Part shown: positions 108-27,233 of the stretch, in pieces
Numbering within the stretch: position 1 is the first letter of the stretch
Layout of the letters: every line of letters begins with the position of its first letter
DNA from: Terriglobia bacterium
Lineage (GTDB): Bacteria; Acidobacteriota; Terriglobia; 20CM-2-55-15
Length of the DNA stretch: 42,118 nt
NCBI GenBank assembly: GCA_036274645.1
Contig: DASUFH010000138.1
Span: 1 to 42,118, forward strand
Direction: 5' to 3'
Made by a program: the position numbers and the translations under genes
The notes under the pieces: generated by a model
Seen by the model: only the letters and a program-made list of their open reading frames with translations
Told to the model about the DNA's origin: nothing
Database searches by the model: none

Positions 108-1760
108 GTGCAACGTGAAATCCTGGAAGTCGATGTCCTGATTGTCGGAGCCGGCCCTGCGGGTCTGGCGGCCGCATACCGGTTACGCCAGCTGGCGAAG
201 GCGGCGAACCGGGACGACTTTTCGATCGCGGTTCTCGAAAAGGGAAAGGAGGTCGGCGCGCATATCCTGTCGGGCGCCGTGATGGATCCGCGCGGAATCG
301 ATGAACTGATGCCGGACTGGAAAGAGCGCGGCGCGCCTGTCGAAAGGCCCGTTGAAGAAGACCATTTCGTCTTTCTCGCGCGGACATGGAGTTTCACGCT
401 GCCCATCACTCCGCCGCCACTGCGGAACCATGGCAATTTCATCGTGTCGCTGAGCCGCCTGACACGCTGGCTGGGCGCCGAGGTTGAAAAGAGCGGCGTG
501 GATGTGTTCACGGGTTTTGCGGGTTCTGAACTTCTGATGGAGGGCGAGCGTGTCATCGGTGTGCGGACCGGAGACAAAGGCGTCGACAAGGCGGGCCGGC
601 CGAAGGGAAATTTCGAGCCGGGCATTGATATTCACGCCAGGGTGACGATCCTTGCGGAGGGAGCGCGCGGATCACTGACCAAGCGGCTCACACAACGCCT
701 CCGCCTCGACAGCGGACAGAATCCGCAGGTGTACACGATCGGCGTCAAGGAAATCTGGGATGTACCGAAACAACGGGAAGCGGGCGGCTGGGTTTTTCAC
801 ACGATGGGATGGCCTTTGCGGGCCGACGAATTCGGCGGTGGATTCATCTACAACATGGCGGAGGGTAAGGTGTCCATCGGTCTCGTCGCGGGCCTGGATT
901 ACCATGATCCGCGGTTCGATCCACAGGTCCGTTTGCAGGAGTTCAAGACTCATCCATTCGTGCGCCGTCTTCTGGAAGGCGGCAGCCTGTACGCTTACGG
1001 CGCAAAGGCGATTCCTGAAGGCGGATACTGGGCGCTTCCTCGCTATTACTGTGATGGAGCGTTAATGGTCGGCGACACGGCTGGATTCCTGAACGCCATG
1101 CGCTTGAAGGGGATCCATCTCGGCATCAAGAGCGGGATGCTGGCGGCGGAGGCCGCCTTTGCGGCCATCGAAGCGGACGACACTTCATCCGTCCGCCTCC
1201 GCCGGTTTGAGGAACTCGTTGAACACAGCTGGATCAAAGAGGAATTGTGGAAAGTCCGCAATTTTCATCAGGGATTCGAGAACGGCCTCTTCATGGGCAT
1301 GCTGCACACCGGGTTGCAGATGATTACCGGCGGCCGCGGTGTCCGAGACCGCTATACCAACCAGCCAGGCCATGCGCGAATGCGCCGGCTCAAGGATTTT
1401 TACGGCGCGCCGGTTCCACCGCCGGTTGCGGTACCCATGGAACGCCCGCTGATGTTCGATAAGTTGACCGATGTCTATCATTCGGGGACCGAGCACGAGG
1501 AGGACCAGCCGGTTCACCTCGTTGTGGTCGAGCCGGACATCTGTCACACGCGCTGCATTGAAGAGTACGGCAATCCCTGCCAGTTTTTCTGCCCGGCGGC
1601 CGTTTACGCCATGGCGCCAAACGCGGCCGGAGACCTGCGGCTCGAAATCAACGCCTCCAACTGCGTCCACTGCAAGACCTGCGACATCATGGATCCATAC
1701 CAGGTGATTGATTGGGTTACGCCGGAAGGCGCCGGTGGGCCGTCTTACGATCGGACATGA
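108..1760 (+). CDS. Electron transfer flavoprotein-ubiquinone oxidoreductase (ETF-QO)
   Basis: 550 aa with GTG start. N-terminal FAD fold VLIVGAGPAGLAAA. C-terminal ferredoxin-like Cys clusters (CHTRC..CPAAVY..NCVHCKTCDI) and overall ETF-QO-like sequence. Confidence 0.9.
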   Translation: MQREILEVDVLIVGAGPAGLAAAYRLRQLAKAANRDDFSIAVLEKGKEVGAHILSGAVMDPRGIDELMPDWKERGAPVERPVEEDHFVFLARTWSFTLPITPPPLRNHGNFIVSLSRLTRWLGAEVEKSGVDVFTGFAGSELLMEGERVIGVRTGDKGVDKAGRPKGNFEPGIDIHARVTILAEGARGSLTKRLTQRLRLDSGQNPQVYTIGVKEIWDVPKQREAGGWVFHTMGWPLRADEFGGGFIYNMAEGKVSIGLVAGLDYHDPRFDPQVRLQEFKTHPFVRRLLEGGSLYAYGAKAIPEGGYWALPRYYCDGALMVGDTAGFLNAMRLKGIHLGIKSGMLAAEAAFAAIEADDTSSVRLRRFEELVEHSWIKEELWKVRNFHQGFENGLFMGMLHTGLQMITGGRGVRDRYTNQPGHARMRRLKDFYGAPVPPPVAVPMERPLMFDKLTDVYHSGTEHEEDQPVHLVVVEPDICHTRCIEEYGNPCQFFCPAAVYAMAPNAAGDLRLEINASNCVHCKTCDIMDPYQVIDWVTPEGAGGPSYDRT

Positions 1761-8844: not shown

Positions 8845-8994
8845 TAGACAGTCCCCCCACGTTCAGGTTTATTGCGTAGCGCCAGCATAGCTTATTCCGG
8901 CGCGGCCGGTATCTGCGAAATCCCGGCAGACGTCCTTGTCCGGAGCCATTCCTTCGATTACGATTCCGCCATCTTACAGAAAGAGACAACGCGT

Positions 8995-10944
8995 ATGAGA
9001 GGACGAATCGTTCGGATGAGCGCGATCGCCCCGGTTCTGGTGGCCGCGATTGCGTGTTTTCTGGCATGGGCAGAGGATTCCATTCCCGCGAACACCGAGT
9101 GGCGATATTGGGGAGGCGATGCGAGAACCACTCATTACGCGCCGCTCGATCAGATCGGACCGGCCAATGTGTCCCGGTTGCAGATTGTATGGCGCTGGAA
9201 CACGGCAAGCCTGGGCGGCCGCGCGGACTCGAACTGGGAGGTCACGCCGCTGATGGTTGGCGGTATTCTCTATTTCACTGCGGGGCAGCAGCGCCATGCC
9301 GTGGCGGCCAATGCCGCGACTGGCGAGACGCTATGGACGTACGTTCTCGACGAGGGCGCGCGCGCGGCGCGTCCCGTGCGTTCGAACAATCGCGGCCTGG
9401 CGTACTGGTCCGACGGCCGCAACGACTCGCGTGTCCTGTTCATTACGCCGGGCTACCAACTTGTCGCTCTCGAGGCCAGGACCGGCAAGCCCATCCCGAC
9501 GTTCGGCGCCAGTGGCGTGGTGGACCTGACGGTGGGGCTCGATCGGGACGTCGTGCGGCCGAGCGAGATCGGCGCTACGTCGCCGGCCATGATCGTTGGC
9601 GATGTGGCGATCGTGGGCGCCGCGTTGCTTTCCGGCACGACTCCGCGGTCCATGACCAACGTGCCCGGATATGTGCGGGGCTATGACGTTCGTACCGGTG
9701 AACGGCTCTGGACATTTCACACGATTCCGCGTCCGGGCGAGTTCGGTCATGAGACCTGGGAGGAAGGTTCCTGGGAATATACAGGCAACACGGCCGTCTG
9801 GGCCCCGATGAGCGCGGACCTGGAACTCGGGTATGTCTACCTTCCCGTCGAGTCGCCGACGGGCGATTACTACGGCGGGCACCGCCCCGGCGACAATCTG
9901 TTCGCCGACACGCTGGTGTGTCTGGACGCGAAGACCGGAAGGCGTGTGTGGCATTACCAACTCCTCCATCACGACATCTGGGACTACGACATCGCATCGG
10001 CGCCGACACTGCTGGATGTGACGATTGACGGAAAGAGAGTCAAGGCCGTTGCGCAGCCAACCAAGCAGGCCTTTTTGTTCGCGTTTGACCGGGTCACCGG
10101 AAAGCCCCTCTGGCCGATTGAAGAACGGCCGGTTCCCCAGTCGGATGCGCCGATGGAAAAGACCTCCCCGACGCAGCCCTTTCCCACCAGGCCGGCGCCG
10201 TTCGATCGGCAGGGCGTGACGTTAGATGACCTGATGGATCTCACGCCCGAGCTGAAAGCGGAGGCGGCGCGGATCGCGTCCGAGTTCAAATTGGGGCCGT
10301 TGTTTACACCCCCCATCGTCGAGGGCGCGGGCGGCAAGCGGGCCGCGCTTCAGGTGCCGCACACCCAGGGGGGCGCGAACTGGCAGGGCGCCGGCGCCGA
10401 TCCGGAAACAGGAATCGTCTACGTGCCATCCGTGACCAACTGGTACGGGAATGCGCTCCGTCGCAATACGCAGCGGTCCGACATGGCTTTTGTCGGACGG
10501 AGTGTCGCGCCGGAGCGGCCGATGGGTCTTCCGCTGATCAAAGGGCCCTGGGGACGGATCACCGCGATCGATCTCAATACGGGCGATCACCTTTGGATGG
10601 TTCCCAACGGAAAGGTCCCCGAGTACATTCGGAACCATCCGGCGCTTCAGGGCGTCGATCTGAGCGGACTGGGTAACCCCGAACGCGCCCCCCTGCTCGT
10701 GACGAGGACCCTGCTTTTTGCCGGAGACGGAAGCGGGATGTTTTCCTCCGGACCCAATGGGGGTGGTCCAATCTTCCGGGCGCTCGACAAGAGAACTGGA
10801 GCGCTCATTCATGAGATGCGGTTGCCCGGGAACGAGACTGGTTTACCAATGACTTACATGCTGGATGGGCGTCAGTACATTGTAGTCGCCGTTGGCAATC
10901 GAAACGCCGCCGCAGAGCTGGTGGCCCTGGCGCTGCCGAAGTAA
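8995..10944 (+). CDS. PQQ-dependent dehydrogenase (8-bladed beta-propeller quinoprotein, glucose/quinate-like, no Cys-Cys ring seen)
   Basis: Signal-like MRGRIVRMSAIAPVLVAAIACFLAWA. WRYWGGDARTTHYAPLDQI..NVSRLQIVWRW, TPLMVGGILYF..AANAATGETLW and repeated W-containing propeller motifs. Confidence 0.8.
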   Translation: MRGRIVRMSAIAPVLVAAIACFLAWAEDSIPANTEWRYWGGDARTTHYAPLDQIGPANVSRLQIVWRWNTASLGGRADSNWEVTPLMVGGILYFTAGQQRHAVAANAATGETLWTYVLDEGARAARPVRSNNRGLAYWSDGRNDSRVLFITPGYQLVALEARTGKPIPTFGASGVVDLTVGLDRDVVRPSEIGATSPAMIVGDVAIVGAALLSGTTPRSMTNVPGYVRGYDVRTGERLWTFHTIPRPGEFGHETWEEGSWEYTGNTAVWAPMSADLELGYVYLPVESPTGDYYGGHRPGDNLFADTLVCLDAKTGRRVWHYQLLHHDIWDYDIASAPTLLDVTIDGKRVKAVAQPTKQAFLFAFDRVTGKPLWPIEERPVPQSDAPMEKTSPTQPFPTRPAPFDRQGVTLDDLMDLTPELKAEAARIASEFKLGPLFTPPIVEGAGGKRAALQVPHTQGGANWQGAGADPETGIVYVPSVTNWYGNALRRNTQRSDMAFVGRSVAPERPMGLPLIKGPWGRITAIDLNTGDHLWMVPNGKVPEYIRNHPALQGVDLSGLGNPERAPLLVTRTLLFAGDGSGMFSSGPNGGGPIFRALDKRTGALIHEMRLPGNETGLPMTYMLDGRQYIVVAVGNRNAAAELVALALPK

Positions 10945-14666: not shown

Positions 14667-15530
14667 ATGGGCGTCTCAAACGAAATGGCGCGGGCGTTCA
14701 TTGAATCGCATCCTGACGAGGCCGCCGCGGAAATGGAGCGTATGCCGCTGGTGGACGCGGCCGCGCTGCTCGAGGATCTTCCACATGAACTGGCTTCCGG
14801 GATAACGGCCCGGCTGTCGACCTTGTTTGCGGCAGAATGTCTGCGGCGGCTTCCGGCGGGAGTTGCGGGAGAGTTGCTGGCTGAAATCCCCCGCGATTCC
14901 GGGGCTGCGTTGCTCCGTCGGCTGCCTGCCGACGATCGTGACCGCCTGCTGACGGTCATGCCGCGCAACGCGTCAAGCGCGCTGGCGCGGCTGACGCGCT
15001 TTCCGGAGGGAACGGCGGGCGCGCTGATGGATCCCGAGGTGCTGGCCGTGCCTGTCGATACTCCGGTTTATTCCGCCCTGGACCAGGTGCGGGTTTCGGG
15101 CGCGCGCGTTCTCTATTACGTCTATGTGGTGGACCGGAACAATCATCTGGTGGGGGTGGTGAACCTCCGCGAGTTGATGTCCGCCGGCGCCAACAGCGCG
15201 CTGGGCGATGTGATGCGTCCACACGTGGAACGGATTTCCGTATACGCGGATCGTGTTGGCGCGCTGGCGCACCCGGCGTGGCGGACGTTCTATGCGCTGC
15301 CGGTTGTGGATGACACCGGCCTGCTGGTCGGCGTGCTGCGGCACAAGCGTTTGTACGCTTCAGAAGACGAAGCCGCGGCGGACTCGCCCAACCTGCTGGC
15401 GGTCGGCATATCGCTCGGAGAGATGTACTGGTCGGTCGCCGCGCAGCTGCTCGAGAGTCTCTGGCCCGCCGCGCGCCGAACGGCGGAGGAGCCAGAGGGG
15501 ATGGAGACGGAGATAGAAAATGAGCGATAA
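14667..15530 (+). CDS. Soluble MgtE-like cytosolic sensor module (MgtE N domain plus CBS pair, no TM domain)
   Basis: 287 aa, collinear with the first ~260 aa of the downstream MgtE. GTAGALMDPEVLAVP.. and VVDRNNHLVGVVNLRELM are CBS-like. Starts 2 nt after the upstream stop and overlaps mgtE by 11 nt. Confidence 0.7.
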   Translation: MGVSNEMARAFIESHPDEAAAEMERMPLVDAAALLEDLPHELASGITARLSTLFAAECLRRLPAGVAGELLAEIPRDSGAALLRRLPADDRDRLLTVMPRNASSALARLTRFPEGTAGALMDPEVLAVPVDTPVYSALDQVRVSGARVLYYVYVVDRNNHLVGVVNLRELMSAGANSALGDVMRPHVERISVYADRVGALAHPAWRTFYALPVVDDTGLLVGVLRHKRLYASEDEAAADSPNLLAVGISLGEMYWSVAAQLLESLWPAARRTAEEPEGMETEIENER

Positions 15531-16827
15531 CGCGGACCTTGCCGCCGGCCGCCTGGCCATCCGGTTCATGGAGCAGTTTCCAGAAGAAGCGTCTCTGCGC
15601 CTGGAGAGCGCGGATCCCGCCGAGGCGCAGGCCATGCTGACGCGAATTCCGCCGGTCAACGCCGCGCGGGTGATTGAGCGAATGACGGTGGACGCCGGAG
15701 CTCGCGTGATCGAAGAGATGGAGCTGGATTCGCTGAAACCGGTCCTCGCCGCGATCGATCCGGCGTGGGCGGCCACGCTGCTGACGCGGCTGGACGAGCC
15801 GGCTCGGGAACAACGGCTGAAGTTGTTGCATCCCGCCGCCGCAGCGGAGTTGAAGTCGCTGATGAGCTACGAGCCCGGTTCCGCCGGGAGTCTGATGGAT
15901 CCCAAGGTCCTTGCGTTTCGTCCGGAGGCGACCGCGGGGGACGCGCTGGACCGCCTGCGCCGCAGCGGCATCCGAAGGATTCAGGACGTCTTCCTGGTTA
16001 ATGGCTCCGGGGAACTGGCCGGTTCCGTCACGCTGCAGGACATCGCGGTTGCGCCCAGCGACGAACGGCTGAAGGATCTTGTGCGGGCTGTAACCCCGCG
16101 CGTCTACGCGACGGCGAGCCGCGAGGAAATCGGCGAGACGATGGAAACATCACGCCTCGCCACGCTGGCGGTGGTTGACGCCGAAGAGCGCCTCGTGGGC
16201 GCCATCCGCCAGGACGCGCTGTTTGTGGCGGCCCAGGAAGAGGCGACCATCGACATCCAGACTATGGTTGGCGTCAGCCGCCAGGAGCGCGCCTTGTCCA
16301 CGCCGACCTTCGCAGTGAAGAAGCGCCTGCCCTGGCTCAGCATCAATCTGGGCACAGCGTTTCTGGCGGCTGCCGTCGTCGGCATTTTCGAGAACACCAT
16401 CGCTCAGGTGACCGCGCTGGCCGTGCTCCTGCCGGTCGTGGCCGGTCAGTCCGGGAATACCGGCGCGCAGGCGCTGGCCGTAACAATGCGTGGCCTGGCG
16501 CTGCGGGAGATCCGCGCGCGACAGTGGTTGCGCATCGCGCTCAAGGAAATCAGCGTCGGTTTTCTGAACGGTCTCGCTATTGCGGCGCTTACGTCCGTGG
16601 CTGTTTTCGTCTGGAGCGGCTCTTCCGGACTGGCGGTCGTTATCGGAACATCAATGGTGATCTCCATGGTTGCCGCCGGATTCGCGGGCGCGGCCATTCC
16701 CATGCTGCTGACCGCTCTTGGCCAGGATCCCGCTCAATCGTCATCGATCATCCTGACGACCATCACGGATGTGACAGGCTTCTTCAGTTTTCTCGGAATC
16801 GCCACATTGATGCTGCGCATGCTCTAG
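15520..16827 (+). CDS. mgtE: Magnesium transporter MgtE (full length)
   Basis: 435 aa with N domain, CBS pair and C-terminal 5-TM domain. Motifs PVVAGQSGNTGAQALAVTMRGLAL and ILTTITDVTGFFSFLGIA. Confidence 0.9.
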   Translation: MSDNADLAAGRLAIRFMEQFPEEASLRLESADPAEAQAMLTRIPPVNAARVIERMTVDAGARVIEEMELDSLKPVLAAIDPAWAATLLTRLDEPAREQRLKLLHPAAAAELKSLMSYEPGSAGSLMDPKVLAFRPEATAGDALDRLRRSGIRRIQDVFLVNGSGELAGSVTLQDIAVAPSDERLKDLVRAVTPRVYATASREEIGETMETSRLATLAVVDAEERLVGAIRQDALFVAAQEEATIDIQTMVGVSRQERALSTPTFAVKKRLPWLSINLGTAFLAAAVVGIFENTIAQVTALAVLLPVVAGQSGNTGAQALAVTMRGLALREIRARQWLRIALKEISVGFLNGLAIAALTSVAVFVWSGSSGLAVVIGTSMVISMVAAGFAGAAIPMLLTALGQDPAQSSSIILTTITDVTGFFSFLGIATLMLRML

Positions 16828-19753: not shown

Positions 19754-19883
19754 CCTACAACGATGCGCCTTTCCAGACACGGGTTTGCCGTCCTGAGGGC
19801 GGCGATTCGCGCGTTTCTCGAAAAGAACGGTCTCGCGCTGAAGTAGACGGACCGGCGGCACGGAGGAGCATCCACGCCTCCGG

Positions 19884-19996
19884 CCACCGGAACCCGCGTT
19901 CTTCGAGGTTCAGATCATCGGATCGCAGGTCGCGCTGAGGCCCATTCATCCATTGAACCACCGGAACCCGCGTTCTTCGAGGTTCAGATCATCGGA
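19884..19996. repeat. 39-nt perfect direct repeat, two copies (19884-19922 and 19958-19996)
   Basis: CCACCGGAACCCGCGTTCTTCGAGGTTCAGATCATCGGA occurs twice, 74 nt apart. The second copy covers the stop codon and last codons of the DUF3365-like gene. Confidence 0.9.
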
Positions 19997-20589
19997 ATAC
20001 GCACCACGACGCCGCCCATGGTTTCGCCCATCTTGAAATCGTGACGCGGGCTGTCCTCATGGTCGTTGTGGCAGTTGATGCAGGCTTCCGCGACCGCCAC
20101 GTCGGGATAGACGGCCGTGAAGTATTTCTTGCCGCCCAGGGTTTCTTCCGAATAGTAGGGTTCCTGCTTGGCGACAACGGCTTCCAGTCCGGCCTTCTCG
20201 ACATCCGTCTTGGGCATGTTCTGCTTATTCACCGCCCACAGGGACAGCAGCGCGTAGTTGAAGTCCTTGGTCTTTTCGGAAACCATTTCCGATCCCATCC
20301 GGAACATCTGGGCCGGCAGCGGGAGAGCCTTGGCGTCCTTCCAGTGCTCGTTGGCGCGGATCACGTTTTCCTGCTGAAGCCGGTTGACGACCTGTTTGGT
20401 GTAGATGACCCGATCGGATTCCATGACAGCGTGCAGGGAGTCGGCCATCATCTTTGGCGTGATTCCGGAAGACGCTGCCGATTCTCCTTTGCCACAGGCG
20501 GCGAGACCGGTTGCGATTGCGCAAACCAGCGCCGCGAAGGCGATTGCTCGGATTCCGTGTGCGGGCGTTTTCATCAGCGTAACTTTCAT
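19984..20589 (-). CDS. DUF3365/Tll0287-like c-type heme lipoprotein
   Basis: Lipobox GLAAC and a single CINCH heme c motif near the C-terminus. AAGGAGAG RBS abuts the stop codon of the upstream cytochrome gene. Confidence 0.7.
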   Translation of the reverse strand: MKVTLMKTPAHGIRAIAFAALVCAIATGLAACGKGESAASSGITPKMMADSLHAVMESDRVIYTKQVVNRLQQENVIRANEHWKDAKALPLPAQMFRMGSEMVSEKTKDFNYALLSLWAVNKQNMPKTDVEKAGLEAVVAKQEPYYSEETLGGKKYFTAVYPDVAVAEACINCHNDHEDSPRHDFKMGETMGGVVVRIPMI

Positions 20590-20602
20590 GAGGAAACTCT
20601 CC

Positions 20603-21925
20603 TTATTTTGAACGCGGGTTAGCTGCGGCCTTCCGTAGAGCCATATCGATGCTCTCGATGTGGCGCGCTGGCCGGCCGCGGAAGTTGGTTTCGATCAGGA
20701 CCGGGTCGGCCAGGGCATCGATGGAAAAGCCCAGACCGTGGCAGTTGAGGCAGACGCTGCGAATCATCTTTTCGTTGGGTCTCAGGTTGGCGTTCTGGTT
20801 GTGGTCGACACGAACGGCCGAAGACCCGCCCGTTTCTCCTGTAACGCGGGGAAGGTGGCAGGTGGCGCAACCGACCCCGCTGCCGTCCGGGGCGCGTCCT
20901 TCCGACTCAGCGCGCCAGAGGGCGAAGTGCGGCGAGTCTTTGTAGGCCAGGGAGTGCCGGTCGGCGTGGCAGTCCAGGCATCCATCCGCCGCGGCGCGGC
21001 GGGTATCGAAAGTGTGGGGCGAGTGGCACGAGCCGCAATCCAGCGTTCGCTCTTTCGCGCTGGAGTTCATCGGAAGGCGCGCCAGGGATGGCGACATCGG
21101 TCCCAGACCGGCCGCAAGTCGCATGCCGTGTCTTCCCCCGGAGAAACCCTGCGATTCGCTCTTGTGGCAGGTCTCGCAGGACTGGTATCCCGGATGATCG
21201 GTCCAGGCCTTGTTCGCCGAGCCACTCGCGACGACATGGCAAGCGGAGCAGTTCACCCCGCTTTGGGCATGCGCAGTGGATGCCCATTCTTCGACCAGAC
21301 GGGGATCCGCCACCGTCCCGTGAGGGTCGTCACGCCGGCTTGCGTCCACTGGCGTTGCGGAGGTCCGGCGGGGCCGTCGAGTTACCAGCGCAACGCTGAG
21401 AACTTCCGGTTCGCTTTGATGCTTCAGGAGAAAATCGGTATACAGCGCTCGATTGTCATGAAAGTTGTGGCAGCCTGCGGACGCGCAGGAGTCGAAGGCC
21501 ATGTTCTGATGACTGGGTCTTTCCCTGGCAATGTCGGAGTGACAGTAGAAACAGACATCCGCGGGCAGCGTGACTCCCATCGTTCCCGTGATCTCGGGAC
21601 GGTGTTCGACATGGCAGGTCACACACGATGTCGCGTCCAGCCTGGCAATCCGCTCCGCATTGCGGGGATCGGTGAACTTGCTTTTGGGGTGCGAGTCTTC
21701 TCCTTCCGCCAGATCGGTCTGGTGGCACTTCATGCAGGAATCCGAAATCGCGCCCTGAAACGGGACGTGACAGCTGTCGCATGCCAGCTCGATCTGGTAA
21801 TGTCCGGAGGAGGTCTGCCCGGGCAGAAACATGCCGCGATCCTTCGACTGCAGTTTGATTGCGATTCCGGCCACCGCCAGAATCGACGCCATCGACCATC
21901 CGAGCCAGACAAGCCGTCTGCGCAT
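20603..21925 (-). CDS. Membrane-anchored multiheme cytochrome c (10 CXXCH plus 1 CX4CH)
   Basis: Start MRRRLVWLGWSMASILAVAGIAI (ATG 21925, or GTG 21928), 5 nt after the upstream stop. Motifs CDSCH, CMKCH, CVTCH, CFYCH, CASAGCH, CSACH, CETCH, CGSCH, CLDCH, CATCH, CLNCH. The track ORF to 22765 is an out-of-frame overlap with the upstream gene. Confidence 0.85.
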   Translation of the reverse strand: MRRRLVWLGWSMASILAVAGIAIKLQSKDRGMFLPGQTSSGHYQIELACDSCHVPFQGAISDSCMKCHQTDLAEGEDSHPKSKFTDPRNAERIARLDATSCVTCHVEHRPEITGTMGVTLPADVCFYCHSDIARERPSHQNMAFDSCASAGCHNFHDNRALYTDFLLKHQSEPEVLSVALVTRRPRRTSATPVDASRRDDPHGTVADPRLVEEWASTAHAQSGVNCSACHVVASGSANKAWTDHPGYQSCETCHKSESQGFSGGRHGMRLAAGLGPMSPSLARLPMNSSAKERTLDCGSCHSPHTFDTRRAAADGCLDCHADRHSLAYKDSPHFALWRAESEGRAPDGSGVGCATCHLPRVTGETGGSSAVRVDHNQNANLRPNEKMIRSVCLNCHGLGFSIDALADPVLIETNFRGRPARHIESIDMALRKAAANPRSK

Positions 21926-21930
21926 CACGT

Positions 21931-23943
21931 TCAGAAGTAGTACGCGGAAAGAATGTGAAAGGCCACCAGCGCCGGCAGCGGCCACACCAGGACGACATGT
22001 CCCCAGACCACACATTTTCGTAAGGCCATGGCGCGCGTTGTCGCGAGTCGATGGTCGGCGGAGACAACGCCGCCGGCGGCCGCGCCCGCGAGATTGGCCA
22101 AAGCAAAGACGGTCATGAGCGCCGCGTTGAGGTTGGCGCCGAACCGGAGCCCGGTATGGGCGACGAGGACGATCAGCGCGCCGACGCCGAGCAGGGCATG
22201 GACGGCGCGCCACAGTCCAAAGTCCCCGCGAGTAAAGGAGCGGAGTCGTTTGCGCGCCGACAGCAGCATGCCGAGGCCCGTCAACCCAAGAAGGGAGAAT
22301 CCGGTGACCTGCTTCCAGACGCTGTTGCGCCAGATCACATCGTAGGGAAATGTTTGTACCGATGCGGCGTAGGGAAGAGAAGGGGCGAAAAATATCGCCG
22401 CGACGAGAAGCAAGGCCGCGCCGGCCGCTACCGCCAGACCACGCGCGCCGCGGGCCGGTCCCGTTGTGGCCGCAGGCTGTCCGGCGAGCTCCGCGAGCAA
22501 TGGCTTGCAGGTTCCGCACAGCGTGGATGCGCCGGTCGCTGCGGCCATCGCTTCCACGGTTGCGCAGCCGGCGGTCTGGGCCGCGGCGAGCATTCCGCGT
22601 GAGACGTTCATGCAGTTGCAGACGGTGGCCGCGGCCGGCCACTGTCCAACGGGTTGCCTCCGCGCCGGCCAGAGGGTTCCCTGCCGCATGAAACGGCGCG
22701 CCTGCCAGGTCCATACCCGCCGCTCGACCCGGACGGCATCCTGTACTTCGCCCGCCTCGGGCCACGCGCCAAGCGCGCTGGCGCCGACGAGGCGGTTGTC
22801 ACGGACGACAATGCGACGGTAGACGCCATCGGATTCCCAGCAGTGGGTGACAGCCGGCTGGTTGTAGTCTCCAAAGACCGAAACGTCGAGACCAAGGACT
22901 TTCAAGCGCGTGGACATATCCGCGCCCCGAAACTCCGCGCCGCCACCCAGCAGCCGGTCCACGAGGACCTCGGCCATCTGGTATGCCGGCGCGGCCAGGC
23001 CATAGGTGACGCCGCGGTGGTTCGCGCATTCGCCAATCGCGTAGATGCTGGGATCGGAGGTTTCCAGTCTGTCGTTGATCTGTATGCCGCCGGGAATGGC
23101 GATGGCCAGTTCACAGGACTCCGCCAGCTCCTGCCGCGGACGAATGCCCGCCGCAACGACCACCAGGTCCACGCTGATGGGCTCCTGATCCTTGTCGGCG
23201 AAGTGCAGCGATCGGCGCCGGCCGTCTGCGGCTATCCGGTTGACGCGCACGTTGACATGAACGCGCAGGCCCATTTCTTCGATCTGCCTGCGGGCCAGCT
23301 CTCCCGCTCGTGGATCCAGCTGGACGGGCAGCAGCTGCGGCGCGAATTCGACGACATGGCATTCCAGGCCCAGTCCCTGCAGCGCCCGCGCGGCTTCCAG
23401 TCCGAGAAGTCCACCGCCGATGACCGCCGCGGACGTGGCGTTTCGGGCGCGCGTCCGGATTTCGTTCAGATCGCCGATCGTGCGGTAGACAAAAACGTCG
23501 GAAAGGTCCGCGCCCTCCACGGGGGGAACAAACGGACGCGAACCCGTGGCGAACACCAGCTTGTCGTACGCCAGCCAGCGGCCGGATTCCGTGTGCGCGA
23601 TGCGTGTTTCGCGGTCGATCGCGATGACGCGGTCGCCCGTGCGCAGCGTTATGCCATTGGCGGAGTACCAGGCCCGGCTCTGGAGACACAGTTCCTCTTC
23701 GGGCCGGCCGGCCAGAAAATCAGTTAAATGAACACGGTCGTAGGCGGGACGCGGCTCTTCGCCGACAACAACGACTTCGTAACGCGCCATTCCCTGGCGC
23801 GCGGCCAGCTTCTCGCAGAGCTTGTAGCTGGCCATGCCGTTGCCGACAATGACCAGCCTCTCTCTGGGAGGAGCCGCCCCCTCCGACGGGCGTGAGGCGG
23901 CGTTCCTGTGACCAGCCGCCAGAACTTCCGTTGCCGCGTCCAC
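21931..23943 (-). CDS. Fusion protein: NirB-type FAD/NAD(P)H pyridine-nucleotide-disulfide oxidoreductase, BFD-like [2Fe-2S] domain and a 5-TM bis-His (putative di-heme b) module
   Basis: RLVIVGNGMASYKL and AAVIGGGLLGLEAA Rossmann motifs. IYAIGECA. C-N-C..x31..C-G-T-C BFD-like cluster motif. Five C-terminal TM helices, with H-X13-H on TM3 (AVHALLGVGALIVLVAHTG) and TM5 (WGHVVLVWPLPALVAFHIL). Start is uncertain: GTG 23943 lies 2 nt after the globin stop, while ATG 24021 would overlap the globin by 76 nt. Confidence 0.8.
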   Translation of the reverse strand: MDAATEVLAAGHRNAASRPSEGAAPPRERLVIVGNGMASYKLCEKLAARQGMARYEVVVVGEEPRPAYDRVHLTDFLAGRPEEELCLQSRAWYSANGITLRTGDRVIAIDRETRIAHTESGRWLAYDKLVFATGSRPFVPPVEGADLSDVFVYRTIGDLNEIRTRARNATSAAVIGGGLLGLEAARALQGLGLECHVVEFAPQLLPVQLDPRAGELARRQIEEMGLRVHVNVRVNRIAADGRRRSLHFADKDQEPISVDLVVVAAGIRPRQELAESCELAIAIPGGIQINDRLETSDPSIYAIGECANHRGVTYGLAAPAYQMAEVLVDRLLGGGAEFRGADMSTRLKVLGLDVSVFGDYNQPAVTHCWESDGVYRRIVVRDNRLVGASALGAWPEAGEVQDAVRVERRVWTWQARRFMRQGTLWPARRQPVGQWPAAATVCNCMNVSRGMLAAAQTAGCATVEAMAAATGASTLCGTCKPLLAELAGQPAATTGPARGARGLAVAAGAALLLVAAIFFAPSLPYAASVQTFPYDVIWRNSVWKQVTGFSLLGLTGLGMLLSARKRLRSFTRGDFGLWRAVHALLGVGALIVLVAHTGLRFGANLNAALMTVFALANLAGAAAGGVVSADHRLATTRAMALRKCVVWGHVVLVWPLPALVAFHILSAYYF

Positions 23944-23945
23944 GG

Positions 23946-24371
23946 CTACATTCGCGCGGCCATGGCGGAGCGCGCGCCTTCCTTCATGGTGGACGCGAGA
24001 ACAGTGTAGACGGCCACCCACGCTTCCTTTGTTTCCGGCGTGAACTCGTTTCCAAGCCCACGTTCCAGTGTCCAGAGAAGCGCCTCGGCGACAGTATCGT
24101 AGTGCCCGTCTTCCACTCCGTAGCCCTTGTGCCGCGCGCCGAGATCGCGCACGACGGGTACCAGCGCTTCGAGATTGTCGAGGCCCTTCACTGCGGCCGC
24201 CAGCATCTGCATCAGCTTCTTCTTCTGGTCGCTGAGATCTTCCTTGAACATTGGCCGTAGCTTCGGATCCAACGTGAAGAGCCGGGTGTAAAACACATCG
24301 GCGGCCTGATCGGCAATGGGCGCGACCATGGCGAATGTTGCCTGGACACGCTCTTTCTGCTTCGTCGTCAT
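23946..24371 (-). CDS. Single-domain globin (sensor/protoglobin-lineage-like)
   Basis: 141 aa from MTTKQKERVQATFAMVAPIADQAADVFYTRLF..DP.LRPMF, then LGARHKGYGV (proximal His region). GGAAGGAG RBS about 10 nt before ATG 24371. Confidence 0.8.
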   Translation of the reverse strand: MTTKQKERVQATFAMVAPIADQAADVFYTRLFTLDPKLRPMFKEDLSDQKKKLMQMLAAAVKGLDNLEALVPVVRDLGARHKGYGVEDGHYDTVAEALLWTLERGLGNEFTPETKEAWVAVYTVLASTMKEGARSAMAARM

Positions 24372-24629: not shown

Positions 24630-25586
24630 TCAGCTTTCCGATTGCGAGGAAGCCAGGGAGCGCAGACGCCGGGTGGCCTGTTCCACGGCGCGCCGGGCCT
24701 GGGTCAGCGATTCTTCCGCCGCATCCGATTCGGCCGTCATGCGGATGGCGTGAGCCGTGGCCTCGCGGGCCTGTGTTTTCGCCTGTTTCAGGCGTTCCTC
24801 AGCGTCGCGCTTCCGGTCTTCGAATCGTTGCGCGTCCGATTCGGCCTCTCGCGCGGCGGTTGCGGCATGTTCGGCTCTCGTTCGGGCCACGCTGAGCGCA
24901 CGCTCCGCCTCGGCCAGCCTGGCTTGCGCCTGGGCGATTTTGTCTGCGACGGGATTAAGAGGCGGTGGGGCGCCTGGTGGCGCGGCCTTCTCCGGAACGG
25001 CAGCGATGACGGCAGGCTTTCGCGCCGGCGTATCAGAAACGAGTGTGACGAGAAAATCGAATCCCGGGGCGTCGAGATCGCTCGTGAGGCGTCCCGGAGG
25101 AGGAGAATCCGAACGCGCCGATAACGCCTCGAGCGTGGCGACAATGCGGCGCATCGTTTCGGGCGCCGGGCTGTGGCCACTCTGCCGCAGAAGCGCATCG
25201 GCCGCCCGCGCAAGCTCGGCAATGGCTTCGCGGCGCGCTTCGAGGGGTTCGCGAATATCTCCGGTCTTTCCGCCCAACTGCGCCAGCTGCGCTTCACGCA
25301 ACCGTTGGCCCGATGTGAGCAGGTGGTCGAAGGACTGGCGTTTCCGCCAGTACAGTTGATTGACCGTCCATGCGGTCACCGGCGGTTTGGAGAGCGATTG
25401 AACCTGTCCGGCCTCGGTCTTGCGTCCTTCCCGTTTAAGCCGGCCTGCCAGAGCGTTCCGCGCTGCCGTGAAATCGGCCAACGGGAGTTGGAACAACTCG
25501 TCGATGCTTCGTTCAACTTCCGTTTCGAATGTGCCGCTCCGGGACGGGACCGGCTTCCGGTCAGGCATGAGCAAGGAGTCTGTCAC
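24630..25586 (-). CDS. Hypothetical protein, N-terminal globular domain plus Ala/Glu/Arg-rich coiled-coil tail
   Basis: 318 aa with GTG start 25586, preceded by GGGGAG located in the palindrome arm. No family recognised. Confidence 0.5.
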   Translation of the reverse strand: MTDSLLMPDRKPVPSRSGTFETEVERSIDELFQLPLADFTAARNALAGRLKREGRKTEAGQVQSLSKPPVTAWTVNQLYWRKRQSFDHLLTSGQRLREAQLAQLGGKTGDIREPLEARREAIAELARAADALLRQSGHSPAPETMRRIVATLEALSARSDSPPPGRLTSDLDAPGFDFLVTLVSDTPARKPAVIAAVPEKAAPPGAPPPLNPVADKIAQAQARLAEAERALSVARTRAEHAATAAREAESDAQRFEDRKRDAEERLKQAKTQAREATAHAIRMTAESDAAEESLTQARRAVEQATRRLRSLASSQSES

Positions 25587-25784: not shown

Positions 25785-25844
25785 CCTCCCCTCCGAGACG
25801 TCCGTAGAAATACGGTCTGGTTGCCGCCGGGAATCTTTGAGAAA

Positions 25845-27233
25845 ATGCTTCGCCCTATGGTTAAGGGATCGTGTCGGTTACGGTTCAATTCAGGCGTTCT
25901 TTCTGTGGCGTTCTGTCTGTTGGTCGGCGGACACGTGGCCGCGGCATTGGCGCCGGCGGCGTCTCAGGGAGTGACGTTATTGGATGAGACCCCGGTTATG
26001 CTGCCCGCTGCAGGAACGATGACGGAGCGCCCCTTCTTTTCATCGCGCCGGCACCCCGCCATCAACTACGATCTGCCGCCGTCCGATGCGGTGAGCGCCC
26101 TTGCCCAGAAAGTGTCAAGCGGTGAGACCCGGCTCCGGTTCGACCCCACCAGCGGTTATTTGATGTCCGTGCTGGAAGCGCTGAAGGTTCCAGTGGAATC
26201 CCAGGCGGTGGTCTTTTCAAAGACCAGTCTGCAGTCGCACTACATCAGTCCGGCCAATCCCCGCGCTCTGTTCTTTACGGACGAAGTGGCGGTGGGTTTT
26301 ATCCGCGGCGCTCCGCTGCTGGAGATCAGCGCGCTGGACCCGCGGCAGGGCGTCGTGTTCTTCGTCATCGACCAGAAGGACGCGGCTCGACCGCTGATTG
26401 TCCGGAGCGACTCCTGTCTTTCCTGTCACGAGAGCCGGAACTCCATGGGCATTCCCGGCATGCTTGCGCGCTCCATGGCCGTGGGCGATGGGGGACAGAT
26501 CAAGCTGCAGTTTGGAACCTTCAATTCCGACCATCGCAGTCCTTTTGAGGAACGCTGGGGCGGATGGTTCATCACCGGGCTGGCGGGAACGGCCGCCCAC
26601 ATGGGCAACACGATGGTTGCGGCCGACGCCACCGGCCGGCCGGCCGGGCAGCCGAAGCCCCTCGCATCGCTTGATGGCGCCTTTGCCCCGGATGGGTATC
26701 CGGCTCGGTATAGTGATGTCGGCGCGGTCATGACGCTCAATCATCAGATCGGCATGACGAACCTGATGATCCGTATGGGATGGGAATCCCGTATCGCGGT
26801 CCATCAGGGACAGAAGAACCCGGCGGATCGCGGCGCAGGCGAACGGCTCATTGAGGCCGACGCCCGCGAACTTGCCGATTACATGCTGTTTGTGGATGAG
26901 CCGGCGCTGCCCGGAACGTTTGAGTCCACCTCCGGATTCAAAACCGCATTTGCCGCGGCGGGTCCCCGCGACAGTCAGGGACGAAGCTTACGGCAGCTCG
27001 ATCTCGGAAAGCGGCTCATGCGGTATCCGCTGAGCTACATGATCTATTCCCGAGCCTTTGACGGTTTGCCCGACGTTGCCCGTGAAGCGGTCTACTCCCG
27101 TCTGTGGACCATCCTCTCCGGACAGGACAAGTCGACGCGGTACTCCCGCCTTACGGCCGCCGACCGCTCCGCGATCGTCGGTATCCTTTTGGAAACGAAA
27201 CCCGGTCTGCCGAGTTATTACAAGGCTTTGTAG
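25845..27233 (+). CDS. Secreted hypothetical protein with a single CXXCH heme c motif
   Basis: Signal-like LRFNSGVLSVAFCLLVGGHVAAALA and the motif DSCLSCHESRN. Start is uncertain (TTG 25821, ATG 25845 or ATG 25857). No family name recognised. Confidence 0.6.
   Translation: MLRPMVKGSCRLRFNSGVLSVAFCLLVGGHVAAALAPAASQGVTLLDETPVMLPAAGTMTERPFFSSRRHPAINYDLPPSDAVSALAQKVSSGETRLRFDPTSGYLMSVLEALKVPVESQAVVFSKTSLQSHYISPANPRALFFTDEVAVGFIRGAPLLEISALDPRQGVVFFVIDQKDAARPLIVRSDSCLSCHESRNSMGIPGMLARSMAVGDGGQIKLQFGTFNSDHRSPFEERWGGWFITGLAGTAAHMGNTMVAADATGRPAGQPKPLASLDGAFAPDGYPARYSDVGAVMTLNHQIGMTNLMIRMGWESRIAVHQGQKNPADRGAGERLIEADARELADYMLFVDEPALPGTFESTSGFKTAFAAAGPRDSQGRSLRQLDLGKRLMRYPLSYMIYSRAFDGLPDVAREAVYSRLWTILSGQDKSTRYSRLTAADRSAIVGILLETKPGLPSYYKAL

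Follow-up and report, generated by a model that had tools for sequence, protein, structure and literature searches.

The contig DASUFH010000138.1 of a Terriglobia bacterium (assembly GCA_036274645.1; Acidobacteriota), which we analyzed over positions 1 to 42,118 of the forward strand, a stretch referred to below as the window, carries an operon-type block of four minus-strand genes that extends from position 24371 down to 19984. Read along the minus strand, these encode a globin (23946..24371; ATG at 24371, TAG at 23948-23946; 141 amino acids), a predicted flavo-FeS-cytochrome b fusion termed redTM (21931..23943; GTG at 23943, TGA at 21933-21931; 670 amino acids), an undecahaem cytochrome c termed mhc11 (20603..21925; ATG at 21925, TAA at 20605-20603; 440 amino acids) and a DUF3365/Tll0287-like lipoprotein (19984..20589; ATG at 20589; 201 amino acids). 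The globin gene has the ribosome-binding site GGAAGGAG at 24389-24382 (minus strand), and the GTG of redTM begins 2 nucleotides past the globin stop; a protein of 670 residues with exactly this GTG start is also the gene call in a public sequence collection. Gaps of 5 and 13 nucleotides separate the stop of redTM from the start of mhc11 and mhc11 from the DUF3365 gene, and the AAGGAG of the last gene (20604-20599) overlaps the mhc11 stop. Rereading the coordinates on the minus strand therefore reproduces both the three gap lengths given in the initial annotation of this DNA and its placement of the last ribosome-binding site against the preceding stop. A consensus scan finds no excess of internal promoter- or terminator-like sites in the block (1 versus 0.7 and 7 versus 4.8 expected, respectively), and Rfam and tRNA scans of the window returned no matches.

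Relatives of this gene set are widespread. A scan of one genome per GTDB species yielded 233 carriers, the best 80 of which were examined; adjacency was counted only at loci with enough contig, and loci of at least 15 kb (n = 51) are referred to as long loci. The 80 loci span Verrucomicrobiota, Planctomycetota, Alpha-, Beta- and Gammaproteobacteria, Poribacteria, Acidobacteriota and Polyangiaceae, at least six phyla in all. The mhc11 gene directly follows redTM in all 74 scorable loci, a DUF3365 gene is present in 70 of 71 and lies directly after mhc11 in 66, and a globin gene occurs in 43 of 58, mostly after DUF3365 and at times before redTM as in the window. Median identities to the window proteins are 41% for the reductase, 49% for the cytochrome, 58% for DUF3365 and 57% for the globin, which is high given how distant the hosts are. 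Look-ups that started from the globin recovered the same module in three of four cases and a variant in the fourth. In 20 loci (L002, L005, L010, L011 and L014, for example), a 129-residue monohaem cytochrome c of class I (Cytochrome_CBB3-type) is encoded between DUF3365 and the globin; the window does not have this gene.

Because synteny is conserved, the arrangement is far from chance. The close junctions and the synteny across phyla support the operon-like packing that the initial annotation had described, and the possibility it had raised, that the four genes are not neighbors in related genomes, is set aside by these counts. Its remark that no characterized system has this composition also holds, in that none was found in Pfam, NCBIfam, the Protein Data Bank (PDB) or the literature, and targeted literature searches yielded no published description of the four-gene module. 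The four-gene set is a real, tightly conserved and so far uncharacterized bacterial module.

The first part of redTM (residues 29-405; 22729..23859, minus strand) is an FAD/NAD(P)H reductase head of the NirB/NorW type. It matches Pyr_redox_2 (2.8e-55), Pyr_redox and Rubredoxin_C in Pfam, and its PDB relatives are NADH oxidase and rubredoxin reductases. Against the NCBIfam model for NirB (TIGR02374), redTM aligns with positions 1-465 of 794 at 6.4e-141, scoring 471 bits versus a cut-off of 578, and the NorW model is matched at 2.8e-44. A BFD-type [2Fe-2S] domain follows (residues 440-486; 22486..22626, minus strand; Fer2_BFD 1e-7), with Cys442, Cys444, Cys476 and Cys479 as its cysteines and a Foldseek TM-score of 0.82, on the target, to Pseudomonas Bfd (6e6r). 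A word-indexed search returned thousands of redTM relatives, the best 120 of which are almost all 630-700 amino acids long and span the whole query; database names for these homologues are limited to ‘FAD-dependent oxidoreductase’ or ‘nitrite reductase large subunit’. A profile of the BFD domain plus the membrane module described below retrieved 438 clusters (50% identity) at E<=1e-30 from 1.84 billion representatives, and nearly all of the best 150 clusters listed are fusions of ~640-710 amino acids or shorter, apparently truncated sequences. Some variants (P0090, P0116) carry a low-complexity insert of ~500 amino acids, rich in Pro, Ser and Ala, between the BFD domain and the membrane module, and the redTM head is therefore read as a tethered, mobile donor. 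A 1020-residue sequence, P0067, which appears to fuse reductase and cytochrome, has a garbled reductase C-terminus before the cytochrome start; this is most likely a frameshift or assembly artefact and was not used.

The C-terminal part of redTM (residues 500-670; 21934..22446, minus strand) is a five-helix transmembrane module carrying two pairs of histidines, His582/His596 and His649/His663, each with the spacing H-X13-H. An AlphaFold2 model of the BFD domain and membrane module, with a predicted local distance difference test (pLDDT) score of 81, has five long helices and places the first pair on the third transmembrane helix (TM3) and the second on TM5. Across 110 full-length homologues, neither these four His nor the four Cys of the BFD domain vary, and a periplasmic-face motif, HTG.R.G.NLN, and a C-terminal one, WPLP...FH..YYF, are invariant as well. 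K/R-rich loops lie between TM2 and TM3 (SARKRLRS) and between TM4 and TM5 (RLATTRAMALRK); their position after TM2 and TM4 suggests that the head, the loops and one His of each pair face the cytoplasm, and the other His the periplasm. The module is thus predicted to hold two bis-His b haems, one near each membrane face. The finding of a NirB-like reductase, a BFD-type [2Fe-2S] domain and five transmembrane helices within 670 residues, as initially annotated, is borne out by Pfam, NCBIfam, the ligand spacing and the structural model.

No Pfam family is matched above threshold by this membrane module. Of the di-haem cytochrome b clan, DUF4405 is matched by 12 of 17 members tested (best E 7.6e-4), all below the 26.7-bit cut-off, and Ni_hydr_CYTB (cytochrome b561) by 7 of the 17, also below threshold (best E 0.099); Ferric_reduct is matched by a single member at E 2.1. 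Foldseek searches of the PDB found no significant fold match for the module, helical-bundle matches being non-specific (E > 0.7), and none to NOX or DUOX, DUOX1 appearing at rank 33 (E 5.2, TM-score 0.27).

Ten CXXCH motifs and one CX4CH motif (CASAGCH) are present in mhc11, all of them invariant, in agreement with the initial description of a signal-anchored cytochrome. The N-terminal helix (residues 2-26) is modeled with a pLDDT above 90, and the protein is accordingly predicted to be membrane-anchored and periplasmic. Haems 1-5, including the CX4CH site, belong to a pentahaem cytochrome-c3-like domain (residues 42-170; 21416..21802, minus strand), for which Pfam reports, among other multihaem models, Cytochrom_c3_2 (residues 42-130; 8.6e-14, 52.2 bits versus a cut-off of 25) and Cytochrom_CIII (1e-7). 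Conserved distal His residues are present, and the c3-like part presumably adopts a bis-His multihaem packing. Haems 6-11 belong to a hexahaem C-terminal domain (residues 215-440; 20606..21283, minus strand) with a strongly conserved HNQN...PNEKM.R loop.

The conservation of mhc11 is unusual: identity is ~50% between phyla, 77 columns of an alignment of 69 sequences are invariant, and Arg, His, Tyr and Lys residues besides the haem ligands are conserved. A profile comparison with the PDB gives NrfA at 6.8e-9 and an octahaem nitrite reductase (ONR) at 7e-7, as local haem-pair matches only. The best structural match of the AlphaFold2 model (pLDDT 80) is Brocadia HAO (E 2.7e-3, TM-score 0.29); there is no global structural match to NrfA, ONR or HAO (TM-scores <= 0.29), and NrfA fold matches are insignificant, the models having been built without haems and so being of limited use for a fold search. 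Scores against NCBIfam stay below the family cut-offs (DmsE TIGR03508, 45.4 versus 192.2 bits; NrfA, 27 versus 595), and mhc11 contains no CXXCK motif. Because of the ~50% identity across phyla, the invariant columns and the local NrfA/ONR-like haem-pair motifs, mhc11 may be an enzyme and not a wire. The initial annotation had seen no recognizable terminal catalytic module in the locus. This stands as far as CXXCK and the NIR_SIR domain are concerned, neither of which was found, but the conservation of mhc11 and its NrfA/ONR-like motifs leave room for a catalytic role. Two sets of literature leads on multihaem proteins, the Tenderiales ‘Uet’ undecahaem cluster and multihaem clusters of Gallionellaceae, proved to be unrelated systems.

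The last protein matches the Tll0287-like family (PF11845) at 1.8e-20 and 74.3 bits, well above the cut-off of 24.1, and has a lipobox (LAAC, Cys32) and one CXXCH (Cys170/Cys173, His174), as expected for the DUF3365-type haem lipoprotein of the initial annotation. DUF3365 has been reclassified as a family of haem-binding Cache domains, sCache_haem (Deshpande et al. 2026, preprint; 10.64898/2026.02.01.703092). The window protein shares with this family and with Tll0287, whose structure is cited there as 5B82 (10.64898/2026.02.01.703092), the Pfam match, the conserved CXXCH and a stand-alone periplasmic form. Among 57 aligned sequences (the window protein and 56 orthologues) the CXXCH is invariant, no further Cys is conserved, and nearly all have no Cys other than those of CXXCH and of the signal-peptide or lipobox positions, L049 being the exception. 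In the absence of a conserved axial Cys, Cys/His ligation as in Tll0287 is excluded for these orthologues, which sets the window protein apart from the Cys/His type of Tll0287 and Pseudomonas putida. In lacking Cys it resembles the receptor type, a Cys-less member of which is reported to bind nitric oxide (NO) (10.64898/2026.02.01.703092); it differs from that type in having no signaling output domain, and the loci contain no conserved neighbor encoding a signaling protein. It is also unlike known sCache_haem proteins in being a lipoprotein that is always encoded beside a multihaem cytochrome. An Idiomarina DUF3365 protein, another literature lead, belongs to an unrelated system.

A 65-nucleotide direct repeat is found at the end of this gene (window positions 19858-19996). 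Its two copies, 74 nucleotides apart, are 82% identical, with the final 39 nucleotides identical; copy 2 overlaps the final codons and stop of the DUF3365 gene, and copy 1 lies in the spacer before an EamA-type gene. The repeat looks like a local duplication of the 3′ end of the operon.

The globin consists of the globin domain only (Pfam Globin, 1.8e-18) and, having no signal peptide, is expected to be cytoplasmic. It matches the N-terminal domain of the Hmp model (positions 3-135 of 399; 8.9e-22; 77.5 bits versus a cut-off of 432), and its best PDB match is HGbI of Methylacidiphilum (3s1i, 6.7e-30). By sequence it is closest to the HGbI/neuroglobin-like lineage and is not Hmp itself. HGbI is a low-potential, hexacoordinate, lipid-interacting globin (PMC11203436). 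Taken together, Pfam and NCBIfam searches match the domain make-up of all four proteins as initially annotated, and motif and ligand analysis agrees with the predicted cofactor order of FAD, [2Fe-2S], two b haems and a chain of c haems.

A variant from a further phylum is informative about which parts belong together. Marinoscillum sp. MHG1-6, a member of the Bacteroidota, has a cluster of nitrate-transporter genes and, after it, hemA, a globin gene and a gene for a Tll0287-like protein, and then genes for a 158-residue membrane protein, an FNR-type FAD/NAD/[2Fe-2S] reductase, a CcmF-like protein and a 240-residue cytochrome. The globin is 68% identical to that of the window, and the DUF3365 proteins match at E 2e-17. 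The 158-residue protein is a stand-alone homologue of the membrane module, with the same two H-X13-H pairs and a C-terminal FYY motif; in its alignment with the module profile (hhalign E 1e-4), the four His all coincide. The cytochrome has five haems and aligns motif for motif with the anchor and pentahaem part of mhc11 (E 2e-12); it has no hexahaem domain, so that the N-terminal pentahaem domain is the only part of mhc11 kept. Marinoscillum thus rebuilds the design, namely an NAD(P)H flavo-[2Fe-2S] reductase, a membrane module of the di-haem type, an anchored multihaem cytochrome c, a haem-Cache protein and a globin, with a non-orthologous flavoprotein and without the C-terminal hexahaem domain, which supports reading the module as an electron path and suggests that the hexahaem domain is not its indispensable end-point.

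Genes surrounding the module point to nitrate assimilation. All open reading frames (ORFs) of the 80 loci were clustered and representatives checked against Pfam and NCBIfam. Genes for NrtABCD, NasT, NasA or NIR_SIR proteins lie within 10 kb in 31 of the 51 long loci. Recurrent neighbors encode NrtA-type binding proteins and co-clustered ABC ATPases (33 loci), NrtB permeases (21), Alginate_exp-type porins (20-23), NasT-like ANTAR regulators (13) and NasA-like molybdoenzymes (9), as well as NIR_SIR nitrite reductases and CysJ-like flavoproteins; across the 80 loci such neighbors are limited to nitrate-assimilation genes and regulators, porins and the class-I cytochrome c. In the closest relative, whose reductase is 67% identical, the order is porin-nrtABCD-globin-redTM-mhc11-DUF3365 on a single strand, and the permease passes the NCBI cut-off for nitrate permeases (229.9 versus 209 bits). 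In several Gammaproteobacteria the module sits between nasT and nrtABC, and in L001, L009 and L039 it lies within nas clusters, at a site where one would usually look for nirBD. The idea that the module generally replaces sirohaem nitrite reductase was nevertheless rejected, a true NirB or NirA being encoded beside it in at least six loci: a full NirB adjoins it in L011 (854 amino acids with both NIR_SIR and NIR_SIR_ferr) and L077, and a NirA-type enzyme in L032, L028, L063 and L026. As a canonical sirohaem nitrite reductase is often encoded in the same loci, the module is no simple replacement of NirB.

Several features of these neighborhoods deserve separate mention. In the window, the position of nrtABCD in the closest relative is taken by a 318-residue Ala/Arg/Glu-rich ORF without Pfam match (24630-25586, minus strand), on the same strand as the globin gene and 258 nucleotides upstream of it. 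A 575-residue protein is encoded before the NasA-like molybdoenzyme in L001 (14809-18995) and also in L028, L032, L039, L050 and L074 (Verrucomicrobiota and Planctomycetota); its sequence shows a number of Cys motifs of the 4Fe-4S ferredoxin type and, behind them, hydrophobic membrane segments, which suggests a membrane-linked electron supply to an ‘assimilatory-type’ nitrate reductase. In two variants, L081 (7724-9004) and L082 (7775-8599), a tetrapyrrole-synthesis gene lies just upstream of the globin gene, which fits the heavy demand of the cluster for haem or sirohaem; one variant has the gene for glutamyl-tRNA reductase there and the other that for uroporphyrinogen-III synthase.

Upstream regions of 69 loci were scanned for regulatory elements. 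A sigma-54-type -24/-12 element occurs within 350 nucleotides upstream in 22 of the 69, when ~2 are expected from its density in all loci, and 7 of 20 sigma-54-bearing upstream regions contain NtrC-type half-sites (TGGTGCA/TGCACCA). No upstream enrichment is seen for FNR/Dnr, for NtcA or for crude NorR patterns. With no NorR-like and few FNR/Dnr-like sites, the promoters point to nitrogen control and not to NO sensing.

The design of the predicted path has precedent. Passage of electrons from NAD(P)H through flavin and two b haems to the outside is known from NOX, SpNOX and Fre-MsrQ-MsrP, which likewise draw on cytoplasmic NAD(P)H and serve an outside acceptor (PMC5676040, PMC11564096, PMC12525009). 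As in the NOX/ferric-reductase-domain proteins, whose His pairs are spaced by 12-14 residues on two alternate transmembrane helices of like direction, the two His pairs of redTM are spaced by ~13 residues on the third and fifth helices. The two groups differ in that the reductase of redTM is N-terminal and of the Pyr_redox_2 type with a [2Fe-2S] domain, whereas theirs is C-terminal and FNR-type; redTM has five transmembrane helices, theirs six, and it belongs neither to Ferric_reduct nor to that fold. The likely acceptor is also different, being a multihaem cytochrome c instead of the O2 or Mo enzyme served by NOX and MsrQ. The Marinoscillum variant comes nearer to NOX in its FNR-type reductase, but this is a separate protein. 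The quinone independence and the direction of flow put forward in the initial annotation are presumptive; MsrQ, a relative by design, was recently found to hold a ubiquinone (PMC12525009).

With NirB and with the diaphorases NasC (Klebsiella), NasB (Bacillus) and NorW, redTM shares a homologous FAD/NAD(P)H head, the BFD [2Fe-2S] domain and a nitrate-assimilation context; unlike NirB it has no NIR_SIR/NIR_SIR_ferr sirohaem/[4Fe-4S] domain and carries a five-helix, di-haem-type membrane module in its place. The narK-bjgb-flp-nasC genes of Bradyrhizobium couple nitrate assimilation to detoxification of the NO that arises as its by-product, under control of nitrate and nitrogen status (Cabrera et al. 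2016, PMC4724949), and there too the globin is single-domain and is encoded, with an NAD(P)H flavoprotein, among nitrate genes, as is true of related loci, though not of the window. In contrast to redTM, Flp is a soluble protein of 418 amino acids, and the Bradyrhizobium unit, which does not extend into the membrane or periplasm, contains neither a multihaem cytochrome nor a DUF3365 protein; the window globin also departs from Bjgb in its HGbI-like lineage. The single-domain hemoglobin of A. baumannii has a proposed NorW-like partner (PMC11836069), a pairing of similar logic to which the present module would add a membrane and periplasmic branch. Among the single-domain and flavohemoglobins (Hmp, Vgb, Cgb, HGbI), the provision of a globin with electrons by an NAD(P)H-FAD reductase follows the logic of Hmp by analogy, and the window globin does match the Hmp N-terminal domain; it is nonetheless a separate polypeptide, and the redTM reductase belongs to another fold family than the FNR-like domain of Hmp. 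The N-terminal part of mhc11 is cytochrome c3-like, including the CX4CH site, and the C-terminal part has haem-pair motifs in common with NrfA and ONR and a weak fold match with HAO. Eleven haems on a membrane anchor, the lack of CXXCK, which marks the catalytic haem of the five-haem NrfA, and the sub-cut-off scores distinguish it from NrfA/NrfB, ONR, HAO and MtrA/DmsE. By their defining features, the proteins of the module are not NirB, Hmp, NrfA or MtrA-type proteins.

We read the module as a transmembrane flavocytochrome electron exporter, new in its family of membrane modules and in its link to nitrate assimilation. In the mechanism that we propose, the NirB/NorW-type head of redTM would oxidize cytoplasmic NAD(P)H, and the electrons would pass through the BFD [2Fe-2S] cluster to two stacked bis-His b haems in the five-helix bundle, His582 and His649 serving as putative ligands of the haem on the cytoplasmic side and His596 and His663 of that on the periplasmic side. 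From there they would reach the 11-haem cytochrome c anchored in the membrane and then the haem-c Cache lipoprotein, where a periplasmic nitrogen oxide might be reduced; this would most likely be NO, or else nitrite or hydroxylamine formed or leaked in nitrate assimilation. The same head probably also reduces the cytoplasmic globin for dioxygenation or reduction of NO, such that the module as a whole would protect both compartments. Gene anatomy, conservation of the ligands, synteny, the genomic and promoter setting and the non-orthologous variant are observations, whereas haem occupancy, the direction of flow, quinone independence, the substrate and the partnership of globin and reductase are inferred.

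Because the module in other genomes usually lies among nitrate-assimilation genes, it most likely handles NO or nitrite. The initial suggestion of NO or nitrite as a substrate gains independent support from this context and fits the published NO binding of Cys-less haem-Cache domains. The initial analogy with flavohemoglobin needs to be corrected for the HGbI-like and not Hmp-like lineage of the globin. We consider the chances about even that the four genes are transcribed as one unit and specify a module for transmembrane electron export that is functionally part of nitrate/nitrite assimilation. A narrower proposal is less likely than not: the module would be an enzyme system new to the nitrogen cycle, an NAD(P)H-powered, quinone-free periplasmic reductase of NO (or of nitrite or hydroxylamine) built on a new di-haem b family, with catalysis on mhc11 and/or the haem-Cache protein and with the globin, served by the same reductase, acting in tandem. 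On this proposal, and with the same reserve, it would belong to the regulon for nitrate assimilation in Verrucomicrobiota, Planctomycetota, Pseudomonadota, Acidobacteriota, Poribacteria and Myxococcota and would have been rebuilt in Bacteroidota.

Several observations weigh against this interpretation. Nitrate genes are missing within 10 kb in 20 of the 51 long loci, and the window itself, which by its gene content looks acidobacterial, contains none in the ~20 kb on each side of the module. In the crude upstream scans of the 69 loci, which did not include an NsrR pattern, no NorR-like pattern was found and FNR/Dnr-like boxes occurred in 3 of 69. The haems of the membrane module are predictions from ligand conservation. 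In mhc11, 12 invariant His outside the motifs suffice for bis-His ligation of all 11 c haems; with these spare residues, no haem stands out as five-coordinate and catalytic. Among solved globins the closest is HGbI, to which no function is assigned (PMC11203436), and the stand-alone haem-Cache protein that has been tested behaved as a redox protein and not as an NO binder, although it has an axial Cys that is absent here (10.64898/2026.02.01.703092). The class-I cytochrome c encoded in 20 loci may point to exchange with the general pool of cytochrome c.

If mhc11 is catalytic, the module might instead be an alternative assimilatory, ammonium-forming nitrite reductase, in which an NrfA/ONR-like periplasmic enzyme draws on NAD(P)H and the sirohaem domain of NirB has in effect been exchanged for a membrane wire and a multihaem catalyst. 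The redTM head does correspond to the N-terminal half of NirB, and the occurrence of the module at the usual place of nirBD in L001, L009 and L039, the conservation of mhc11 (~50% identity across phyla and conserved Arg, His, Tyr and Lys), its local haem-pair motifs (NrfA, 6.8e-9; ONR, 7e-7) and its best fold match, to HAO, are all consistent with such an exchange. We nevertheless consider this unlikely: canonical sirohaem nitrite reductases adjoin the module in L011, L077, L032, L028, L063 and L026, global fold likeness to NrfA, ONR and HAO is poor (TM-scores <= 0.29), no CXXCK or evident five-coordinate haem is present, and the Marinoscillum variant drops the whole NrfA-like hexahaem domain while retaining the other parts. 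Loci without nearby nitrate genes, that is, the window and 20 of the 51 long loci, could be taken to indicate a general reductive outlet with no link to nitrogen, similar to NOX or MsrQ and delivering electrons to acceptors in the periplasm or outside the cell, such as metals, oxidized proteins, peroxides or O2, or to the periplasmic cytochrome c pool. Parallels with Fre-MsrQ-MsrP and bacterial NOX, the long c3-type haem chain and the class-I monohaem cytochrome c after DUF3365 in 20 loci would fit such an outlet, which is rather improbable all the same: the conserved surroundings of the module include no outer-membrane porin-cytochrome conduit, no Mo enzyme and no peroxidase, its recurrent neighbors are nitrate-assimilation genes and regulators only, and the conserved cytoplasmic globin is hard to account for.

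The flow of electrons could also be directed differently. NirB-N-terminal-type diaphorases are known donors of NasA/NasC, Flp is needed for growth on nitrate and for NO tolerance (PMC4724949), NasA is encoded beside the module in 9 loci, and in variants with the long flexible tether, soluble partners would be within reach of the head. The head might then, in the manner of Flp, feed mainly cytoplasmic NasA/NasC and the globin, leaving the membrane and periplasmic haems as an overflow, anchor or redox-sensing branch. The invariance of the membrane module and its four His, their constant fusion to the head and the adjacency of mhc11 in 74 of 74 loci argue instead that the periplasmic branch is the conserved core; many loci moreover have no NasA nearby, and those that do often have donors of their own (an FeS-transmembrane protein, a CysJ-like protein or a NasC-like reductase of 451 amino acids), so that we regard a mainly cytoplasmic role as very improbable. 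Least credible, and in our estimation highly improbable, is reverse flow from a periplasmic donor to the globin or NAD(P)+, or a role of DUF3365 as an NO or redox sensor that gates the system. Inward flow to NAD(P)+ is uphill and opposes the membrane potential. The family of DUF3365 does include genuine NO-sensing receptors (10.64898/2026.02.01.703092), HGbI-type globins have a very low potential and a suggested role in electron transfer (PMC11203436), and some loci also encode a class-I cytochrome c, but DUF3365 has no output domain here and no conserved signaling protein is encoded next to it.

If export of electrons to periplasmic nitrogen oxides is correct, many aerobic nitrate assimilators, including abundant marine and soil Verrucomicrobiota, Planctomycetota and Gammaproteobacteria, would have a dedicated NAD(P)H-driven route across the membrane that bypasses the respiratory chain, and models of the nitrogen cycle would gain a further term by which NO, N2O or NH4+ is produced or consumed. 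The membrane di-haem family would be new, having no Pfam model and no solved relative, and would constitute a bacterial counterpart of the NOX/MsrQ principle made from quite different parts. Stand-alone haem-Cache (DUF3365) proteins and HGbI-type globins would also gain their first physiological context. Current annotation names these genes ‘nitrite reductase large subunit’, ‘cytochrome c3 family protein’ and ‘hypothetical’, and nitrite-reduction potential is consequently mis-scored in metagenome surveys.

Other genes of the window were noted in passing. A 470-residue ORF without Pfam match (25821-27233), located ~1.4 kb upstream of the module but on the plus strand, encodes a hydrophobic N-terminus followed by one CXXCH (CLSCH) and may represent an unclassified haem c protein. 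Tandem MgtE-related genes occupy 14667-16827 (plus strand); the first encodes a 287-residue protein with MgtE_N and CBS domains only and overlaps by 11 nucleotides the start of the gene for a full MgtE channel of 435 amino acids. The window also codes for an ETF-ubiquinone oxidoreductase (108-1760, plus strand) and a PQQ-dependent dehydrogenase (PF01011, 3.6e-183; 8872-10944, plus strand), and for PEP-CTERM, CarboxypepD_reg and TPR proteins.

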